This document shows positions 4,979-36,695 of a stretch of DNA of 41,171 nucleotides, piece by piece. Positions within the stretch are counted from its first letter, which is position 1. Each line of letters starts with the position of its first letter. Made by a program: the position numbers and the translations under genes. The stretch lies in the IMG/VR virus record IMGVR_UViG_2778261424_000010, positions 1-41,171 of that record; one strand, 5' to 3'. The stretch is from a virus. Taxonomy: Duplodnaviria; Heunggongvirae; Uroviricota; Caudoviricetes. The notes under the pieces were generated by a model, which made no database searches, was not told where the DNA came from, and was given only the letters and a program-made list of their open reading frames with translations.

Positions 4979-5646
4979 CATTCATTCTTTGGTATGCCGC
5001 AAAGGGCGTTTAGCGTTTCAACGGGAATGGCAAGTGCGGTGCTGGTCGCTTCACGGCGTTCCACCTCAGGCAAATATGGCACTGCCTCAGGCCACATCTC
5101 AGCCAGTTTTTTAACAGTTGAGACTTTGGTTAGAGCACCTTTAACCTGCAATTGGAAGGCATCAACTTCATCGTAAAGAACGTTGATGGTTACCGTCGAT
5201 TCAGTGAGTCGGTCGTGTAATTTTCCAACTTTCTTCAGCGTGCTGTAACTTTCAGGAACGAAACCCGAATCAATTACAGGCGCGAAGGAAGCTCCGAAGA
5301 ACAGGTCGCTTTCAAGATCGTGCTTACCAATATGTTTTCCACGGTGGCGATAGCGATGATCCAAACCGTTCCTGGCTAATTCGTGATACTCACCATTAAT
5401 AATGACCTTTAAAATTGCAGTTTTAGCGCCGACCTTCATCTTGATGAAGGAGTTATCTTTGAAATCTTCCCGAGCCTTAGTTATTTGCTCATCGCTAGTG
5501 TTTTCCTGCTTGAGCAATGCCTGTCGAATTTCTTCAACAATTTTCGCCCTCTCATTAACCGCAGCTTTCGCTTTCTCAAACAATGGGGATGCGAGAAGCA
5601 GGTTATGGCATAGCTGATTTTTAATTTCGTTGTTAAGACGAATCAT
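4978..5646 (-). CDS. Orphan 222-aa protein, first cistron of the PL operon; function unknown
   Basis: Clean ORF with SD AGAGGG upstream of the ATG at 5646. GC content is lower than in the neighbours. Helical N-terminal third, mixed remainder, no TM segment. I cannot assign a family from sequence alone. Confidence 0.8.
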   Translation of the reverse strand: MIRLNNEIKNQLCHNLLLASPLFEKAKAAVNERAKIVEEIRQALLKQENTSDEQITKAREDFKDNSFIKMKVGAKTAILKVIINGEYHELARNGLDHRYRHRGKHIGKHDLESDLFFGASFAPVIDSGFVPESYSTLKKVGKLHDRLTESTVTINVLYDEVDAFQLQVKGALTKVSTVKKLAEMWPEAVPYLPEVERREATSTALAIPVETLNALCGIPKNE

Positions 5647-14379: not shown

Positions 14380-14516
14380 CATTTGAATCCTGTTTTTCCG
14401 ATCACCTCCGCGTTCGCTGGCAGCGGCTTCGCTTATACCACTTTCCCGGCTCTGTGCTAACGGACTACCGGATACTGAAGAATTACGTGAAAACTTATGC
14501 TGGAGAAGCGCTATGA
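14376..14516 (+). CDS. ylcG: YlcG-like small protein (not in the ORF track)
   Basis: 46 aa: [46 protein letters not shown]. It has ATGA coupling to both rusA and Q, the same position as ylcG in DLP12. Confidence 0.45.
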
Positions 14517-15295
14517 ACCTTGAAAACACAGTGAAATACCACTTCGCTAAATCCACACTGATTAGCGATTCTCCGCGCGCTACCGCCTCCGATTCACTGA
14601 CCGGTACCGACATAATGGCTGCCATGGGCATGACGCAGGAACGCGCCGCAATGGGTTACAGCGCCTTCCTCGGCAAGATGGGCATAAGCAATAACGACCG
14701 GGATCGGGCGATCGGTCTGCTGGCTGAGTACGCGATGACAAAATGCGACAAGGTTGCCGCACTGCGTAAGCTCGGTGCCGCGGTTAAACCTCAGGTGATG
14801 CACCAGTTGGCCACCTTCGCTTTTGAGGACTATTCCCGCAGCGCTGCCAGCGTGAAGCAGTGCGATTGTTGTGACGGTCAGGGCTTCATTGAGGCTGACG
14901 TGTTTACCAATAAATTCCGTAAGCCAGAAGGGAGAATGACCGTGTCCGGGATGGTGAAGGTCAAAGAATCCATCAAAGTGCTATGCAAAAAGTGTAATGG
15001 CTCTGGTGTGGTTAGTGCTTCTTGCAGTGATTGCCATGGGCGCGGCAAGGCAGTGAACCAGGCTCTTACTGAGAAACAGGGCGTTCCTGTTCTGGCTGAC
15101 TGTAAGCGCTGCGGAGGGCGTGGGTATGAACGACTTCCGTCGACTGAAGCCTATGCTGCTGTATGCCAGATTACTGACGCCATTAGCCTGGACACCTGGA
15201 AAAAGTCTGTTAAGCCATTCTACGACCTGCTGATCACGAAATTTGATATCGAAGAGTCCTGGGCCGAAAAACAGCTTAAGCAGATAACGCGGTAA
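14513..15295 (+). CDS. Q: Late antiterminator Q (phage-82/DLP12 QuuD family) with four CxxCxGxG zinc-finger motifs
   Basis: 260 aa. The N-terminus [33 protein letters not shown] and the C-terminus TWKKSVKPFYDLL parallel QuuD. The central motifs are CDCCDGQG, CKKCNGSG, CSDCHGRG and CKRCGGRG. Confidence 0.85.
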   Translation: MNLENTVKYHFAKSTLISDSPRATASDSLTGTDIMAAMGMTQERAAMGYSAFLGKMGISNNDRDRAIGLLAEYAMTKCDKVAALRKLGAAVKPQVMHQLATFAFEDYSRSAASVKQCDCCDGQGFIEADVFTNKFRKPEGRMTVSGMVKVKESIKVLCKKCNGSGVVSASCSDCHGRGKAVNQALTEKQGVPVLADCKRCGGRGYERLPSTEAYAAVCQITDAISLDTWKKSVKPFYDLLITKFDIEESWAEKQLKQITR

Positions 15296-30643: not shown

Positions 30644-30831
30644 CCTTCAACAGCCTGCCGGGCGGTGAAGATTTTATTCTTCGCCCGGCGCTTGCCTTCC
30701 ATATTGACCAGAAAGACCTTAACAGCGGTGCGGTAGACCTTTGCCGCATCGCGCTTCTCAATGACTACCTCGACATGCGCGAGGATAACGACGCCCGGGT
30801 AGATAAATGGAGAGCGGCCAATGAGCGGTAA
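30218..30831 (+). CDS. Tail assembly chaperone, -1 frameshift-extended form
   Basis: The -1 frame is open from the slip site to TAA 30829-30831, adding 78 aa (...FFARTPYQRD...DKWRAANER). This frame has no start codon of its own. It ends 10 nt into the tape measure gene. Confidence 0.6.
30589..30595 (+). promoter_or_regulatory. Programmed -1 ribosomal frameshift slippery heptamer
   Basis: A AAT TTT in the zero frame (X XXY YYZ), in the context GGG AAA TTT TTT G. Confidence 0.6.
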
Positions 30832-33088
30832 CGCAGATACGATTAAAGATTTCCTTGTTTCGCTGGGATTCGATATCGATCAGGCTGGCGCTAATAAGTT
30901 TGAAGCCGTGCTGAAAGGCGTTACAGCTAACGTTCTGAAGGTCGGCGCGGTGGTGGAAGGCGCAGCGCTGAGCATTGTCGGATTTACCACTCAGATCGCG
31001 AACGGTCTGGATAAAATTTACTGGGCATCCCAGCGGACGGGGGCCAGTGTCCAGGGCATCAAAGCGCTGGGATACGCCGCATCGCAAACCGGTGCCAGCG
31101 CCGAGTCGGCTATGTCCTCCCTCGAAGGGCTGGCCGGTTTCATGCGTAGCAATCCGGGCGCGGAAGGCTTCCTGAACCGCCTGGGCGTCCAGACTCGCGA
31201 TGCCAGCGGAAAGATGCGTGATACTGCGGCCATCTTTACTGGCGTTGGGCAAAAGCTCAACAACATGCCGTATTACCGCGCGAAACAATACGCGCAGATG
31301 CTTGGCATCGATGAAAACACGCTGATGGCGATGCGGCGCGGCATGAATGGCTTTACCGCCGATTACCAGTCGATGCTGCAAAAGACAGGGTTCAACGCTG
31401 ATAAAGCGGCTGTTCAGTCCAACAAATTCATGACGTCCATGCGCGGGCTTACGTCGCTGTTCGGCATCATGCGGGACAAGATCGGCTCAAACCTCGCTGG
31501 TGGCCTGGCTGGTTCGCTGGACAGCCTGCGGCGGCGCATCCTCGACAATTTCCCGAAGATTGAAGAGACGCTGACCAGAGTTATTAAAGGCGTGATCTGG
31601 CTTGCGAACGCATTCACGAGAATGGCGTGGCGGCTGATACAGGGCGCTGGCTCTGTCATCGACTGGTGGAAGCGTCTTGACGATGGCAGTAAAAATCTGC
31701 TGAAAATATTCGGTGCTCTACTTGTCGCATGGCGTCTGCTTAATTCTGCGTTCCTGAAATCCCCGATTGGAATTATCACCACGCTGATTCTGGCGATCGG
31801 ATTACTCTATGACGATTATCAGACGTGGAAAGAAGGCGGTAAAAGCCTGATTGACTGGTCCAAGTGGGAGCCTGCAATAGAAAAGGCGAAAAAGGCAATT
31901 CTCTGGCTGCGCGATAAGCTTCTGGGGCTGAAAGATTCTGTTGGTGGATGGCAGAACTCGCTGGAAATTTTGGCTACTTTCATCGCTGGGGTATGGGTAA
32001 CAAAAGTATTGGGAGCATTCGCAAAAATATCCGGTCTTCCGATACCTCCATGGCTTAAATTATGGGGAGCGTATGCTGGTTACCTGGTTTCAGATCGTGA
32101 AAACATAAAAGCCAGTGCTAAATCATCTTTGGACTATACCAAAAGGAACATTGGTGATGCTCTTGCTACGGTTGGCATCAAAACCGACCTTGGGCGAAAA
32201 GATGTTAGCGAGGTAAGAGAATGGCCCGCATGGATGGATTGGCTGCATGGTGGCCCAGGTAAGATTATTCGTCAGGCGCAAAGCAATGGCGTCGTTTATG
32301 GCGATAATGTTCAGCCTGACATTCCCGGGGCGGAACAGCATGTTCGTAGTAATGAAATTGCCCCGCATGAAAGAGATGAAATAAAAAACCGTCAGCAGGC
32401 TGCTAATGGTTATCTTGAAAAAATCTCAGACGGGATTGCCAAAATCGGTAATTTATTTTTCTCCCCGGTTGGAGCTGCTGAAATCTCTCCAAATATATCG
32501 GGTGACCCCTCCCAGTTTGCGCAATCAGTCAAACGTCCACAGGCCACAGCCCAGGGCAAAGTATTGCTCGACTGGATGGGGCCAATGTTCAATAAACTTG
32601 AGTCGCTTTATCAACTTCCAGCTGGTCTATTGAAAAGTGTGGCGATAACCGAGTCAGGTGGTAACCAGTTCGCCATGTCCGGCGCAGGCGCGAAAGGTCT
32701 GTTTCAGTTTATGGATGGTACGGCGCGCGACATGGGCCTTCGCGGAAACGATGTATTCGACCCGCAAAAGTCAGCTCAGGCCGCAGCTAAGTACCTCAGC
32801 CAGCTGTTGCGGCAGAACGGCGGAGACCTTAGCAAAGCACTGGCATCATATAACTGGGGGATCGGGAATGTTAAGCGCTATGGCATGGGGTTAATGCCGC
32901 AGGAAACGCGTAACTACATTCCGAAAGTAATGAGCAACATGCCCACCAGCGCCCCGGTGATTCAGCAGGAAACGAATATTAACATCCACGGCGTTTCCGA
33001 TCCGCGCGAGGCTGCCCGTTTGACTGTTGATCGTCAAAAGGGCGTGAATTCACAGTTAACCCAGCAACTCCCCGCAGGACCGAGATAA
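30821..33088 (+). CDS. Tape measure protein with a C-terminal lytic transglycosylase (SLT) domain
   Basis: 755 aa with central TM-like and helical segments. The SLT signature ITESGGNQ...GLFQFM...AAAKYL...YNWG lies at about nt 32627-32890. Confidence 0.9.
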   Translation: MSGNADTIKDFLVSLGFDIDQAGANKFEAVLKGVTANVLKVGAVVEGAALSIVGFTTQIANGLDKIYWASQRTGASVQGIKALGYAASQTGASAESAMSSLEGLAGFMRSNPGAEGFLNRLGVQTRDASGKMRDTAAIFTGVGQKLNNMPYYRAKQYAQMLGIDENTLMAMRRGMNGFTADYQSMLQKTGFNADKAAVQSNKFMTSMRGLTSLFGIMRDKIGSNLAGGLAGSLDSLRRRILDNFPKIEETLTRVIKGVIWLANAFTRMAWRLIQGAGSVIDWWKRLDDGSKNLLKIFGALLVAWRLLNSAFLKSPIGIITTLILAIGLLYDDYQTWKEGGKSLIDWSKWEPAIEKAKKAILWLRDKLLGLKDSVGGWQNSLEILATFIAGVWVTKVLGAFAKISGLPIPPWLKLWGAYAGYLVSDRENIKASAKSSLDYTKRNIGDALATVGIKTDLGRKDVSEVREWPAWMDWLHGGPGKIIRQAQSNGVVYGDNVQPDIPGAEQHVRSNEIAPHERDEIKNRQQAANGYLEKISDGIAKIGNLFFSPVGAAEISPNISGDPSQFAQSVKRPQATAQGKVLLDWMGPMFNKLESLYQLPAGLLKSVAITESGGNQFAMSGAGAKGLFQFMDGTARDMGLRGNDVFDPQKSAQAAAKYLSQLLRQNGGDLSKALASYNWGIGNVKRYGMGLMPQETRNYIPKVMSNMPTSAPVIQQETNINIHGVSDPREAARLTVDRQKGVNSQLTQQLPAGPR

Positions 33089-33690
33089 TGGATATTTTAT
33101 CAGCGATTTTTCGCCAGCAATCCCGGCGAATTGGCCTGCTGATCCCCAGCGTGGTCGTCTCCGAAAAGCATTCTGATGTGCTCGAAATTACTGAGCACCC
33201 GGTGGAGAAGCCAACAACGAATAGCGCTTCGGGCTTCATCGCCGATCATGCGTATAAGCGCCCCAGCGAAGTCACAATGGAATGCGGCTTCGCTGGTGGC
33301 GGTTCGTTGCTGGACTTCATTGATACATCTTCAATCGGCCTCAGCGCCGGACTTAGCCCGAAAGAGACCTATCAGCAACTACTGGATCTCCAGTCCTCTC
33401 GGGTGCCGTTCGATGTAGTGACCGGAAAGCGGGTTTACAGCAATATGCTGGTGCGAGCCATCGAGGTGACAACGGATAAAACCAGCGAGAACGTGCTGAA
33501 CTGCACGCTTACCCTGCGTGAAGTGATCATGTCGCAGACGCAGAGCGTTAGCGTTGCAGATAAATCAGATATGCAGGATGGCGTCAGCACATCGGCGGTG
33601 CAGAATTCCGGGATGAAATCCACTACACCGCCAAACGAATCCTTGCTGAGCCAGCTGGGCGGAAGCGTTACATCAGCATTCGGGGGATGA
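33088..33690 (+). CDS. Baseplate/tail tip protein
   Basis: 200 aa with TAATG coupling to the tape measure gene. Called by position. Confidence 0.45.
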   Translation: MDILSAIFRQQSRRIGLLIPSVVVSEKHSDVLEITEHPVEKPTTNSASGFIADHAYKRPSEVTMECGFAGGGSLLDFIDTSSIGLSAGLSPKETYQQLLDLQSSRVPFDVVTGKRVYSNMLVRAIEVTTDKTSENVLNCTLTLREVIMSQTQSVSVADKSDMQDGVSTSAVQNSGMKSTTPPNESLLSQLGGSVTSAFGG

Positions 33691-33691
33691 T

Positions 33692-33997
33692 ATGCAGTTT
33701 AACGAAATACCGCTTTCTCCTGACAATCAGCAGTTCCGCGTTTTGCTGGGCAATACCACGTATACACTCAGGATCATCTGGCGTGATGCGGCTGGCTGGA
33801 TTATGGACGTGATGGATAGCGGCGGTGCTGCGCTTCTTTCTGGCGTACCTCTCCTGACCGGCGTGAACCTATTACGACAATATCCACAGCTTGGCATTGA
33901 TGGCGCGCTGGTGGTGGCGACCGATAAGGGCGCACCAGACGAGCCCACCAAAACCAACCTCGGCACATACAGCCACCTCATTTTCGTACAGGAGTAG
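33692..33997 (+). CDS. Small baseplate/tail protein
   Basis: 101 aa. Called by position. Confidence 0.45.
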   Translation: MQFNEIPLSPDNQQFRVLLGNTTYTLRIIWRDAAGWIMDVMDSGGAALLSGVPLLTGVNLLRQYPQLGIDGALVVATDKGAPDEPTKTNLGTYSHLIFVQE

Positions 33998-33999
33998 AA

Positions 34000-35064
34000 A
34001 TGTCTCTTAACTGGATGCGCCATTTTGAGCTGCAACTGTTGGACCAGAACGGGCAGGGCGTTTCCCTGTCTGACTTTAAGGTCACGTTCCAGATCGAGTG
34101 GGCAGACACACGCTGGCCACGCGTGGCGAACGTGAAAATTTACAACCTTTCGACCGATACCACGAACAAGATACTGGGGCAGGAGTTTGCAAAAATTCGC
34201 ATCATTGCCGGGTATGACGGTATTGCGCCGGATGTTGATGCGAGCCAGGTTGGTGTCGCCCGGGAGATTTCACCAGACCAGGTAGGGCAGGTGAACGGTC
34301 AGAACTACGGCCTGATATTTGACGGTGATATTCGCTTCACCGTCACCGGGAAGGACAACATCACCGATTCCTGGGTGCTGATTCAGGCCATCAGTAACCA
34401 CGAAGCGTTCCTCTACGCGACTACCATCACCACGCTTGCCGCTGGTTATACCGTTGCGGACCTGCACCGGGCGACTATGCAGGATTTCAACGCGTTCGGC
34501 GTGACGCAGGGCATTACCGGTGACTTTCCTGATACCGTGTTTCCTCGTGGCCGTGCGATTTATTCATCCACCCGTAACGTGATGGATAATATTGCTGCGC
34601 AGTGCAAAGCGACATGGCAGCTGGTGGATGGTCAGGTCCAGATGGTGCCGGAGGATAAATATATTCACGAAGCCATTGTGTTGAATGCCGATACTGGCCT
34701 GATCGGTATGCCGCAACAAACGATGGGCGGCGGCGTAAACGTGCGGTGCCTGATAAACCCAAACATCCGTATTAATGGTCTTATCCAGCTCGATCAGGCT
34801 TCGGTGTACCGCGCCGCGCTCGGCAATAGCGAAATCGCACAGTCGCCCGGGCGTATCACCGAAACAGAAGAGAACGGCAACCGTGTGCTGACCGGCACGA
34901 CGTCACAGGCTGCCAGCATTGCGACGGATGGCGTTTATATCGTCAAAGCTATCGACTATACTGGCGACACCAGAGGTCAGGCGTGGTACATGGATTTGAT
35001 GTGTTTTGCGCGTGGCGCTCGTGATCTTTATAGCCCGAAAGCAATGCAAGGGACGACGAATTAG
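34000..35064 (+). CDS. Baseplate hub-like protein (Mu gp44 / P2 gpD-like position)
   Basis: 354 aa, upstream of the spike gene. Confidence 0.5.
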   Translation: MSLNWMRHFELQLLDQNGQGVSLSDFKVTFQIEWADTRWPRVANVKIYNLSTDTTNKILGQEFAKIRIIAGYDGIAPDVDASQVGVAREISPDQVGQVNGQNYGLIFDGDIRFTVTGKDNITDSWVLIQAISNHEAFLYATTITTLAAGYTVADLHRATMQDFNAFGVTQGITGDFPDTVFPRGRAIYSSTRNVMDNIAAQCKATWQLVDGQVQMVPEDKYIHEAIVLNADTGLIGMPQQTMGGGVNVRCLINPNIRINGLIQLDQASVYRAALGNSEIAQSPGRITETEENGNRVLTGTTSQAASIATDGVYIVKAIDYTGDTRGQAWYMDLMCFARGARDLYSPKAMQGTTN

Positions 35065-35076
35065 TGAGGTGGGGCC

Positions 35077-35421
35077 GTGAGACATTTACTTTGCACTGTT
35101 ACCGTGTTCGCGGTGCTTATATCAGCACCCGCTTTTGCGGATCAGCAATGTGGTGATTTTAAAATCCATTGGGCAGATGATGGCTTAGCCAGAATCAATG
35201 GCGCAAAGCCAGAAATGCAAAAAATCACCTTCCTGAAAAACAAAGGCGATTATAACAATATCAAGATGGATTGGCGTATGGCTACCGATCAGCCTGGAAG
35301 ATGGGTTGGTCTTGAGTACATCAATCGAAACGGCAAAGCCATTCTCAACGCACAGTGGTTGCAAGCCAGCATGGATTCGCCGCGTCAGTATGCAACATAC
35401 GACTGCCGAAAAGTAAAATAG
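35077..35421 (+). CDS. Moron-encoded secreted (periplasmic) protein, unknown function
   Basis: 114 aa with a GTG start after GAGGTGGGG. The signal peptide is MRHLLCTVTVFAVLISAPAFA|DQQ. Two Cys residues lie in the mature part. It is not a lipoprotein. Confidence 0.6.
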   Translation: MRHLLCTVTVFAVLISAPAFADQQCGDFKIHWADDGLARINGAKPEMQKITFLKNKGDYNNIKMDWRMATDQPGRWVGLEYINRNGKAILNAQWLQASMDSPRQYATYDCRKVK

Positions 35422-35439
35422 CCCGCCAGATAGGCGGGC
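35421..35439 (-). terminator. Hairpin terminator shared by the convergent moron genes
   Basis: GCCCGCC-AGATA-GGCGGGC. On the minus strand it is followed by TATTTTACTTTT. It overlaps the TAG of the plus-strand gene. Confidence 0.6.
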
Positions 35440-35444
35440 ATGCG

Positions 35445-35735
35445 TCAAAAATATTGAGCTTTAATTATAATAAACACAATAATTACGAACAGGATGTTTC
35501 TAATTATTTTTTGCTTATGAGTAAGTTGTTTTTTTTCTGTCGATTTCCCGGGAGAGTAAAGGTTAGTGGTATGCGACAGCCCCGTGCCGGGAAGGCCATT
35601 TGTCATCTTTACGCCTTTTTTTCCGATGTTAATGGTGGAACCTTTACCACCAATTGAAGTGCTTACTCCGCTTTTACTAATGTTGATCGCGAGTCCGGGC
35701 GCAATCCGGATTCTTTTACGAAATCTAAATCCCAT
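35445..35735 (-). CDS. DUF4236-like protein with a C-terminal TM anchor
   Basis: 96 aa, SD AGGAG. The N-terminus MGFRFRKRIRIAPGLAINISKSGVSTSIGGKG matches the DUF4236 signature as I remember it. The C-terminus IIRNILFVIIVFIIII is hydrophobic. The gene is very AT-rich. Confidence 0.65.
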   Translation of the reverse strand: MGFRFRKRIRIAPGLAINISKSGVSTSIGGKGSTINIGKKGVKMTNGLPGTGLSHTTNLYSPGKSTEKKQLTHKQKIIRNILFVIIVFIIIKAQYF

Positions 35736-35924
35736 TTGTTACTCCTGTAGTCAATAATGCGATGGTGCAGGTCCACTCTATGGCGGCTTCATGGCTGAAA
35801 TTGATTTTCAATGCTTACTTGTTGCAAACATATCCTAATACACCTTGTGAATGTGTGCCATTGCAGCGGAAAAGCCTTACTTCACACTGATGTAGCTTAG
35901 TTACTAAGAGATAATTGATACCAA

Positions 35925-35947
35925 ACCAGCTTCGGCTGGTTTTTTTA
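35925..35947 (+). terminator. Rho-independent terminator 10 nt upstream of the spike gene
   Basis: ACCAGC-TTCG-GCTGGT is followed by TTTTTTAT. I could not find a plus-strand gene or a clear promoter between it and the DUF4236-like gene. Confidence 0.55.
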
Positions 35948-35957
35948 TGGGGGTTTT

Positions 35958-36695
35958 ATGCCAATTCCAACTCAATCACAGATCGGGGGTGAGCAGCAGA
36001 CCGCGCAGGCCATTGCCGATTCGGTGTCTACCCAGATGCGCGTAGCGATGCCCGGCATCATTCAGTCGTTCGATCCTGACACTGTTACCTGCACAGTAGA
36101 GGTAGCGCTTCGCGGTATTGTTGGCGATGGCTCCACCGAATTAAAACCGCTGGTGGATGTGCCGGTTATCTTCCCGCGCGGCGGCGGTTGCACGCTGACC
36201 TTTCCGGTAAAAGAAGGCGACGAGTGCCTGCTGATCTTTGCCGACCGTTGCATCGATTTCTGGTGGCAGAGCGGCGGCGTTCAGGAGACCGTCGACCCGC
36301 GCCAGCATGACTTATCTGATGCGTTCGCCATCGTTGGCCCGCAGTCGAAAGCGCAGAAAATAAGCGGTATCAGTACCAGCGCCGCGCAGCTGCGCAGCGA
36401 CGACGGAAGCTCGTTCTTTGAGCTCAACCCCACTACGCAGAAAATTAAAATCGTAGCGCCTGGCGGTCTGGAAGTGGTTACCCCGCTGGCCGACTTCTCG
36501 GCGAAAGTTACCATTCACGGGCTCCTTTCCTGGCTTGGTGGAATGGTGGGTTCTGTTGCTTCTGGCGTTGCATCCAAAATCACTGGCGCTGTCGAGTTTA
36601 TCGGCACCGTTAAAGCTAACGGTAAGTCAATTGATGATACGCACACTCATGGAGGCGTGCAGCATGGCACCAGCAACACAGACGGGGTGAACTGA
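35958..36695 (+). CDS. Baseplate central spike protein (Mu gp45 / gp138-N-like)
   Basis: 245 aa. MPGIIQSFDP...VDVPVIFPRGGG...GDECLLIFADR is typical of gpV/gp45-type spikes. Confidence 0.7.
   Translation: MPIPTQSQIGGEQQTAQAIADSVSTQMRVAMPGIIQSFDPDTVTCTVEVALRGIVGDGSTELKPLVDVPVIFPRGGGCTLTFPVKEGDECLLIFADRCIDFWWQSGGVQETVDPRQHDLSDAFAIVGPQSKAQKISGISTSAAQLRSDDGSSFFELNPTTQKIKIVAPGGLEVVTPLADFSAKVTIHGLLSWLGGMVGSVASGVASKITGAVEFIGTVKANGKSIDDTHTHGGVQHGTSNTDGVN

Follow-up and report, generated by a model that had tools for sequence, protein, structure and literature searches.

Gene content of the hub-spike interval

The DNA analyzed here, referred to as the window, is a stretch of 41,171 nucleotides (nt) from a prophage-type virus of the Caudoviricetes. 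All coordinates are positions in this window, and L-numbers designate the loci of relatives. The element in question lies within the late structural operon, between the genes for the baseplate hub and the central spike (35065-35957). The hub gene (34000-35064, plus strand), the left conserved flank, is assigned by a match to phrog_196 (E 5.4e-84) along with a weak one to Pfam E217_GP41. The right conserved flank is the spike gene (35958-36695, plus strand), which encodes a Pfam phage spike N-terminal domain (E 1.1e-41) and is labelled baseplate assembly protein V / membrane-puncturing spike in RefSeq; its match to the Pfam Apex motif is weak and below threshold (E 0.027, 15 bits versus a cut-off of 20.8). 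Two convergent genes lie in between. The first (35077-35421, plus strand, GTG start) encodes a protein of 114 amino acids that resembles Sec-type secreted proteins and matches phrog_3443 (E 6.9e-46). The second (35445-35735, minus strand), antisense to the late operon, encodes a predicted tail-anchored membrane protein of 96 amino acids with a DUF4236 domain. It is preceded by a 5' leader (35736-35789, minus strand) and a non-coding spacer (35790-35922), the presumed site of its promoter. Terminator-like hairpins are located at 35421-35439 (minus strand) and, directly in front of the spike gene, at 35923-35946 (plus strand). With G+C contents of 0.455 for the secreted gene, 0.413 for the cassette around the DUF4236 gene and 0.388 for the DUF4236 coding sequence itself, compared with 0.543 for the hub and 0.568 for the spike gene, the interval has the AT-rich character already pointed out in an initial annotation of this stretch (hereafter the original prediction). 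As judged from sequence comparison, it resolves into three separable layers: a resident gene, a cargo slot and a conserved terminator.

A cargo slot between hub and spike genes

In pairwise BLAST comparisons with relatives carrying other cargo, homology ends at 35406-35419 and resumes at 35935-35940, i.e., in the last codons of the secreted gene and in the 3' arm and T-run of the pre-spike hairpin. These breakpoints define 35420-35934 as the swapped unit. It contains the hairpin at 35421-35439 and the DUF4236 gene, along with some 200 bp in front of this gene. The whole cassette is present in 19 of 5,426 Escherichia coli genomes, always at the hub-spike locus, while complete E. coli genomes with the hub-spike junction as such number 52, and Citrobacter phage Omnitron has this junction as well. 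The original prediction had treated both convergent genes as one moron and had named the comparison of hub-spike junctions in relatives as a check. The designation holds for the DUF4236 cassette, the segment that is exchanged and the true moron of the window. It does not hold for the secreted gene, which stays with the hub and is ruled out as part of the insert by the positions of the breakpoints.

A survey with one genome per species yielded 31 loci from Escherichia, Rahnella, Yersinia, Pantoea, Serratia, Kosakonia, Enterobacter, Citrobacter, Raoultella and other genera. Wherever the contig reached the spike gene, the order was hub, secreted gene, slot, spike. Empty slots of 61-113 bp, containing the hairpin only, occur in Rahnella (L028) and Pantoea (L040) and also past the tandem gene arrays in L031 and L037 described below. 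Elsewhere, the slot houses roughly a dozen types of cargo, most of them without annotation. The relatives compared first carried the same DUF4236 cassette, a Phd/Doc toxin-antitoxin pair, a secreted protein of 128 amino acids, a second, unrelated secreted protein, or an open reading frame (ORF) of 53 codons beside an unannotated antisense gene for an EACC1-like membrane protein. Besides Phd/Doc, the recognised systems are PD-Lambda-1 (E 2.8e-82) and PDC-S42 (E 1.7e-36). Further cargo comprises a T5orf172 protein, a weak HEPN-like pair, a ClpP-like protein, a DUF2335 membrane protein and diverged DUF4236 alleles. In Serratia (L009-L011, 4442-5228), an antisense gene for a Cys-rich protein of 121 amino acids is accompanied by one for a homologue of the DNA polymerase III theta subunit (HolE, 84 amino acids), an unusual gene for the interior of a baseplate operon.

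The slot belongs to a lineage of temperate Enterobacterales myophages with a Pam3/E217-type baseplate. The original prediction had further stated that hub and spike genes are normally contiguous. This is the case in the virulent and distant Salmonella phage yarpen, whose hub is 25% identical to that of the window and is directly joined to the spike, but never in the temperate lineage to which the window phage belongs. The temperate Burkholderia phage BgManors32 carries an unrelated antisense ORF at the junction. We therefore regard the junction as a hotspot for accessory genes in temperate phages with this tail type. A limited literature search yielded no specific prior description of such a hub-spike hotspot.

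The breakpoints also bear on the idea that the secreted and the DUF4236 proteins constitute a single two-component exclusion device acquired together as a convergent moron. This idea is attractive at first sight: the genes are adjacent, convergent and both lower in G+C than their flanks, both proteins are predicted to act in the envelope, and both genes occur in this arrangement in 53 E. coli genomes. Nevertheless, a cooperative device with one envelope and one inner-membrane component, as put forward originally, is very unlikely because the swap breakpoints leave the secreted gene outside the exchanged unit. The two genes also occur apart. Homologues of the secreted gene accompany all other types of cargo as well as empty slots, and DUF4236 genes reside without a secreted homologue in Leclercia and Pseudomonas siphophages, in a satellite-like element and in genomic islands. 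Moreover, the start codon of the secreted gene overlaps the hub stop codon in some relatives, which suggests translational coupling to the late operon and co-expression with the late genes.

The pre-spike terminator as the fixed 3' boundary of the slot

The right boundary of the slot is formed by an intrinsic-terminator-like hairpin with a T7 run. In the window, the hairpin (35923-35942) with its T7 run has a folding energy of -11.3 kcal/mol (z -3.4) and is separated by 11 nt from the start codon of the spike gene (ATG at 35958). When the 55 nt in front of this codon were taken from every locus, 38 distinct sequences resulted, all of which (38/38) contain a G+C-rich hairpin followed by T5-T7, positioned 10-25 nt before the start codon, with any cargo or none. 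In an alignment of 27 sequences, 81.5% of the cells are able to pair, compared with 33-51% after sliding of the 3' partners. Three pairs exhibit compensatory double-sided changes, one of them being the replacement of C-G by A-U in the window relative to the common AAACCCGC...GCGGGTTT stem. The element thus has the make-up of a Rho-independent terminator, and termination is predicted to occur here. The DUF4236 slot of an unrelated Leclercia siphophage follows the same design, with a hairpin, then TTTTATGGAG and then the next tail gene. The original prediction had described this element as an orphan plus-strand terminator. The hairpin and its T7 run are indeed located in front of the spike gene, but because they are kept in all loci including those with empty slots, they represent the fixed 3' boundary of the slot rather than an orphan. 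The insulator role that had been considered for the element appears essentially right.

The alternative proposed for the same DNA, a plus-strand small RNA originating in 35790-35946 and ending at the pre-spike terminator, is extremely improbable in our opinion. It would make sense of some 190 bp of non-coding DNA that end in a good terminator and of a weak match over the full length of the prophage small RNA isrK. This match, however, scores less than half of what is required (23.4 bits against a gathering threshold of 50, E 0.0033 in a search with 291 nt), and its alignment is carried by the hairpin. No Rfam family was found at threshold in 35790-35922, the terminator hairpin giving rise only to sub-threshold matches to isrK and the Trp leader. 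In agreement with the original prediction, no convincing sigma-70 promoter was found on either strand of 35736-35957, and the best site matches the consensus in 8 of 12 positions; on the plus strand, none exceeds this value. Furthermore, the spacer tolerates deletions of 11 bp and 39 bp in close relatives, other DUF4236 alleles leave a total of 96-145 bp between gene and spike, and the terminator is retained in empty slots too.

Organization of the DUF4236 cassette

Morons have been defined as extra DNA in comparison with collinear relatives, with differing base composition, their own promoter and terminator, and expression from the repressed prophage (Juhala/Hendrix; PMC3594210). The cassette is replaced or absent in relatives, deviates in base composition and contains a putative terminator of its own. 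Its features as an AT-rich, horizontally swapped, antisense insert in a late structural operon support its classification as a moron in the classic sense. The terminator-like hairpin at 35421-35439, inside the swapped segment, comprises seven G-C pairs and folds with -16.4 and -16.7 kcal/mol (z -3.7 for the latter) on the two strands. It is followed by the U-rich sequence TATTTTACTT on the minus strand only; the plus strand continues with ATGCGTCAAAAAT. Because the U-tract is confined to the minus strand, we assign the hairpin to the DUF4236 gene and not, as originally proposed, to both convergent genes. A bidirectional terminator was rejected, as a T-run is missing on the plus strand.

Upstream of the DUF4236 gene, the leader is conserved across unrelated phage contexts. 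An alignment with 75% identity to the locus of the Leclercia siphophage extends 54 nt upstream of the ATG, and that to E. coli locus L020 extends 28 nt; in strain EC2001 the leader is replaced. The best sigma-70-like match further upstream is ATGGCA-18-TAGGAT on the minus strand (35861-35832, 8/12). The most common DUF4236 allele of E. coli (L059) is flanked by a promoter matching in 10 of 12 positions (TTGATA-17-GATAAT) and by a terminator. Architecture, mobility and genomic context of the cassette are directly evident from these comparisons.

The DUF4236 protein and its family

The original assignment of a DUF4236-like protein was confirmed, and its C-terminus is a hydrophobic helix, the predicted membrane anchor. 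Residues 3-55 match Pfam DUF4236 (PF14020) with E 1.8e-20 and 73.6 bits against a gathering threshold of 27. The protein is very basic, with 17 Lys and Arg compared with a single Asp or Glu and an isoelectric point of 11.6. An AlphaFold2 model built with 57 homologues (predicted local distance difference test score, pLDDT, 81) consists of a six-stranded antiparallel beta-meander (residues 7-60), a linker and a helix (residues 73-95). On inspection of the sequence, hydrophobic residues alternate with polar or basic ones in the strands. The model suggests a tail-anchored protein with its N-terminus inside and the basic sheet in the cytoplasm. This orientation is favoured because of the positive charge, following the positive-inside rule, and because of relatives that carry an SH3b domain past the helix. 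Sequence searches of the PDB returned nothing for the protein, and NCBIfam returned nothing for either this or the secreted protein.

The family is large. We retrieved 192 close relatives and, by profile search, 6,106 clusters, in which the form of about 90-105 amino acids dominates; relatives are encoded on at least 539 IMG/VR contigs. Diverged alleles (58-64% identity at the protein level) occupy the same slot, always in antisense orientation, in phages of Hafnia, Serratia and Klebsiella (GZ7, RCIP0034, RCIP0098) and in 34 further E. coli genomes. The gene also occupies other positions. In a lambda-like siphophage of Leclercia, the gene lies antisense between the tape-measure gene and gpM, and in a prophage of Pseudomonas syringae B728a between gpK and gpJ. 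A satellite-like element with primase and capsid genes has it as its last gene, a Polaromonas island carries it together with genes for restriction-modification, HipA and ThiF/multi-ubiquitin, and it is also present in a cassette-like region of Vibrio. Among the 80 best IMG/VR loci, which are those most similar to the window protein and biased toward close relatives, 62 place the gene within a recognisable tail-tip cluster, and in 61 of these 62 it is antisense. In the Leclercia siphophage (L016-L019, 5338-5469), an ORF of 43 codons with a signal-peptide-like start (MKKVLALLLVVAFGLMTT) directly follows the DUF4236 gene and is in turn followed by a terminator rated good (5475-5492).

It could be argued that the DUF4236 protein has nothing to do with defence against phages and is a factor for host fitness or physiology, a membrane toxin or part of an addiction module. 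A small, very basic, tail-anchored protein could well serve membrane stress tolerance, lysis timing or prophage maintenance, and the periplasmic SH3b domains of relatives suggest a link to the envelope or peptidoglycan. In addition, the protein matches no known defence model, and toxin-antitoxin modules use the same slot. We nonetheless regard this explanation as unlikely. The gene is consistently found in accessory positions of phages and satellites, beside recognised conflict genes, and its antisense placement in late operons fits a function that is switched off during the phage's own lytic growth. Moreover, the 515-bp cassette contains no ORF for a partner antitoxin.

The resident secreted protein

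The original description of a 114-residue protein with a signal peptide ending in AFA|DQQ and two Cys residues agrees with the sequence. The signal peptide, with typical n-, h- and c-regions, comprises residues 1-21, and the mature part of about 93 amino acids contains C25 and C110. Alignment of 40 family members revealed, by inspection, the succession A/S-x-A, then D or A, then x-x-C in almost all of them, and remote members are alike in this respect. The signal peptide, a Cys at about position +4 of the mature protein and a C-terminal (Y/F)(D/P)C motif are kept in all full-length members inspected. The ORF thus conforms to the pattern of a Sec-secreted periplasmic protein, and export is predicted.

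The family is restricted in size. A word-indexed search gave 86 clusters at 90% identity, all from Enterobacterales where the source names the organism. An exhaustive profile search of 1.84 billion proteins gave only 57 clusters at 50% identity and connected the family to no larger one. Pfam searches with the protein were without result, even when all 40 family members were scanned at E values up to 10, and so was Foldseek against BFVD at E up to 0.001; sequence searches of the PDB gave only weak matches to avidin and nanobodies. AlphaFold2 predicts an eight-stranded up-and-down barrel (pLDDT 82) of the avidin/calycin-like class. Residues 27-40 (35155-35196, plus strand), corresponding to the predicted strands b1-b3, are hypervariable, with a mean column entropy of 1.53 bits compared with about 0.7 bits elsewhere in the mature protein.

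The gene follows the hub gene directly in nearly all relatives examined, irrespective of the cargo downstream, and no terminator is located upstream of it. In Hafnia (L014/L015, 5418-5894), an unrelated protein of 158 amino acids with a signal peptide takes its place after the hub, and a DUF4236 gene is still present downstream. Tandem arrays of 4 to 8 diverged paralogues between hub and spike arose independently in three lineages, namely a metagenomic contig (L012, 1823-5935), Pseudescherichia vulneris (L031, 644-2840) and Serratia aquatilis (L037, 16-3779, and L038). In front of each copy lies a fragment of 190-300 bp duplicated from the hub 3' end, and the paralogues differ mostly in the hypervariable segment. 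This layout recalls the orphan-module arrays beside polymorphic toxin loci. The segment duplicated along with the secreted gene includes a sigma-70-like site in the hub 3' end (TTTATA-17-TATACT, 9/12, 34934-34962) that could be an internal promoter for the secreted gene; its conservation is uninformative because it sits in coding sequence. In E. coli SY3626_hybrid (L003, 1969-2571), the secreted gene is truncated at its 5' end and annotated as a pseudogene, and about 540 bp of unrelated DNA stand in place of the hub end and the start of the gene.

Hypervariability, arrays and positional replacement together suggest a periplasmic binder under diversifying selection, and from its sequence features the protein could exclude related phages or act on a target in the envelope. 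One may go further and consider the barrel the important element of the interval, a late-acting periplasmic binder next to which the DUF4236 cassette is incidental. Such a binder might mask receptors, inhibit a tail-borne lytic transglycosylase or exclude related phages, with the hypervariable edge setting specificity. The nearly constant position behind the hub without an intervening terminator (occupied by another secreted protein in L014/L015), the variability of residues 27-40, the independent arrays, the lytic transglycosylase (SLT) domain on the tape-measure protein and the fold class, which includes many binders and inhibitors, are all consistent with this proposal. Still, it can be advanced only tentatively. 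In comparisons of sequence and fold, the barrel could not be matched to Spackle, Llp, Cor or any lysozyme inhibitor, its function is deduced throughout, and the DUF4236 cassette is left unexplained. The proposal is compatible with the explanation that we prefer, set out below, and the two are not mutually exclusive.

The surrounding late operon

Upstream of the hub gene, the plus strand encodes a tape-measure protein (30821-33088), a Dit-like protein (33088-33690) and a plug of the Pam3_gp18 type (33692-33997). The tape-measure protein has a C-terminal SLT motif, also annotated in relatives, which is a possible target for a periplasmic inhibitor. Past the spike, genes for a sheath-initiator-like protein and baseplate J follow on the same strand. 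The C-terminal half of the spike is a separately exchanged module: homology is lost at about 36406 and regained at 36695 in relatives that are otherwise 95-98% identical. A Q-type antiterminator is encoded at 14513-15295 on the plus strand (Pfam Antiterm PF03589, E 1.9e-45).

Proposed function of the locus

We consider it probable, with moderate confidence, that the hub-spike DNA combines a hotspot layout with a single-gene DUF4236 conflict cargo expressed in the lysogen. The resident late-operon gene encodes a small protein, predicted to be a periplasmic, disulfide-bonded beta-barrel, that is hypervariable along one edge. Recombination exchanges the cargo, with conserved sequence on either side: at the left the 3' end of the secreted gene, at the right the junction of terminator, ribosome-binding site (RBS) and spike gene. 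In the window, the self-contained cassette consists, in minus-strand order, of the presumed promoter, the conserved leader, the DUF4236 gene and its terminator. In the lysogen, cargo would be transcribed from its own promoter, and the pre-spike terminator would keep plus-strand transcription in the prophage state out of the spike and wedge genes. Upon induction, Q-modified RNA polymerase would pass both hairpins, and strong late transcription antisense over the DUF4236 gene would silence it. This use of terminators and antitermination is proposed on the model of what is established for lambdoid late operons and morons (PMC3594210). The DUF4236 protein would be held in the inner membrane by its C-terminal helix with the basic six-stranded domain directed toward the cytoplasm, and it would act without the secreted protein. 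By analogy with HK97 gp15, its most likely role is a single-gene conflict function, either a block of genome entry at the membrane or abortive infection.

Several observations weigh against this explanation. Consensus and relaxed scans of 35736-35957 did not reveal a convincing sigma-70 promoter for the DUF4236 allele of the window. Membrane insertion and orientation of the protein are predictions only, and more generally we infer its expression pattern, topology and function. No model in PADLOC-DB v2.0.0 was matched by the DUF4236 protein or, meaningfully, by the secreted protein, whose only match (Cas11a, E 0.045) is at chance level. A literature search for DUF4236/PF14020 provided one incidental mention and no account of its function. 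The term defence hotspot rests on three recognisable systems among roughly a dozen cargo types, most of which are uncharacterised, and the bias of the 80 IMG/VR loci mentioned above applies to the tail-tip association.

A more far-reaching possibility, which we put forward with reservation and judge somewhat doubtful, is that two conflict functions reside side by side, one of the exclusion or abortive-infection class carried out by DUF4236, the other by the resident barrel directed against incoming tail tips. DUF4236 would then represent a new class of prophage-expressed single-gene systems, preferentially placed antisense in tail-tip operons and shut off by late transcription. The avidin-like barrel, with its hypervariable edge and tandem arrays, would be a periplasmic exclusion or immunity protein of the repertoire type.

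Should the slot resemble other prophage hotspots in its behaviour, it would provide a ready list of candidate genes for anti-phage functions or lysogen fitness. Two anchors that are easy to search delimit them: the secreted gene with its conserved 3' end encoding ...PRQYATYDC, and the junction of terminator, RBS and spike gene. The DUF4236 domain is very widespread, and its repeated, mostly antisense placement near the tail tip in unrelated prophages leads to a concrete hypothesis that is cheap to pursue. The functions of the tail-anchored DUF4236 family and of the diversifying periplasmic barrel are the points worth experiment.

Comparison with known systems

The secreted protein bears a limited resemblance to the avidin/streptavidin family. 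Both proteins are secreted, and a local motif aligns in register, VNWKF...FIDRNGKEVLKTMWLL in avidin (strands 6-8) and MDWRM...YINRNGKAILNAQWLQ in the secreted protein. Avidin, too, has a Cys near its mature N-terminus. Mature avidins, however, comprise roughly 125 amino acids as compared with about 93 for the mature part of the secreted protein, and the N-terminal strands, which carry biotin contacts in avidin, are hypervariable here. The hhalign probability is 43.5%. Since Pfam Avidin is matched by none of the 40 family members, we restrict the resemblance to the level of the fold and do not place the protein in the avidin family.

With regard to position, the secreted protein is reminiscent of T4 Spackle, T5 Llp and Cor of phages phi80 and N15, periplasmic or envelope exclusion proteins encoded beside tail genes, the first of which inhibits a tail-borne lytic transglycosylase. 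Like these, it is small, predicted to be exported, encoded among tail-tip genes and diversified in a manner resembling an arms race. It differs in that no similarity in sequence or fold was found, in that it is not a lipoprotein, and in its predicted avidin/calycin-like eight-stranded barrel.

For the DUF4236 cassette, the closest parallel is HK97 gp15, which acts in superinfection exclusion at the inner membrane and whose gene lies within the tail operon (Cumby et al. 2012; review, PMC3594210). In both cases, a gene for a small membrane protein is inserted in the tail operon of a temperate, Q-antiterminated phage, its base composition is unlike that of its flanks, and its product is expected to act at the inner membrane in the prophage state. 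A terminator of its own and independent transcription, as in the gp15 moron, are also presumed for the DUF4236 gene. With its predicted tail-anchored topology and its location in the tail operon, DUF4236 would be a candidate for the HK97 gp15 and P22 SieA type of inner-membrane protein, which blocks genome entry of incoming phages but not adsorption. Unlike gp15, the DUF4236 gene is antisense to the operon and is predicted to encode a cytoplasmic beta-sheet domain with a C-terminal anchor. The likeness is one of layout and does not imply homology, and exclusion by DUF4236 is proposed by analogy.

The slot itself is best compared with the P2/P4 hotspots, which serve as defence and accessory hotspots of temperate phages and their satellites (PMC13586616), and with lambdoid accessory regions. 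It shares with them a fixed position between conserved genes, unrelated cargo swapped by recombination, here with PD-Lambda-1, PDC-S42 and Phd/Doc as recognised systems, and empty states. It differs by its location in the middle of a baseplate operon, by the phage lineage and by a conserved terminator boundary about 10-25 nt from the next start codon. What had looked like a two-gene device followed by an orphan terminator is thus explained by ordinary moron and hotspot architecture, and the hub-spike layout is a new instance of a well-known kind, that of tail-operon morons and prophage accessory hotspots.

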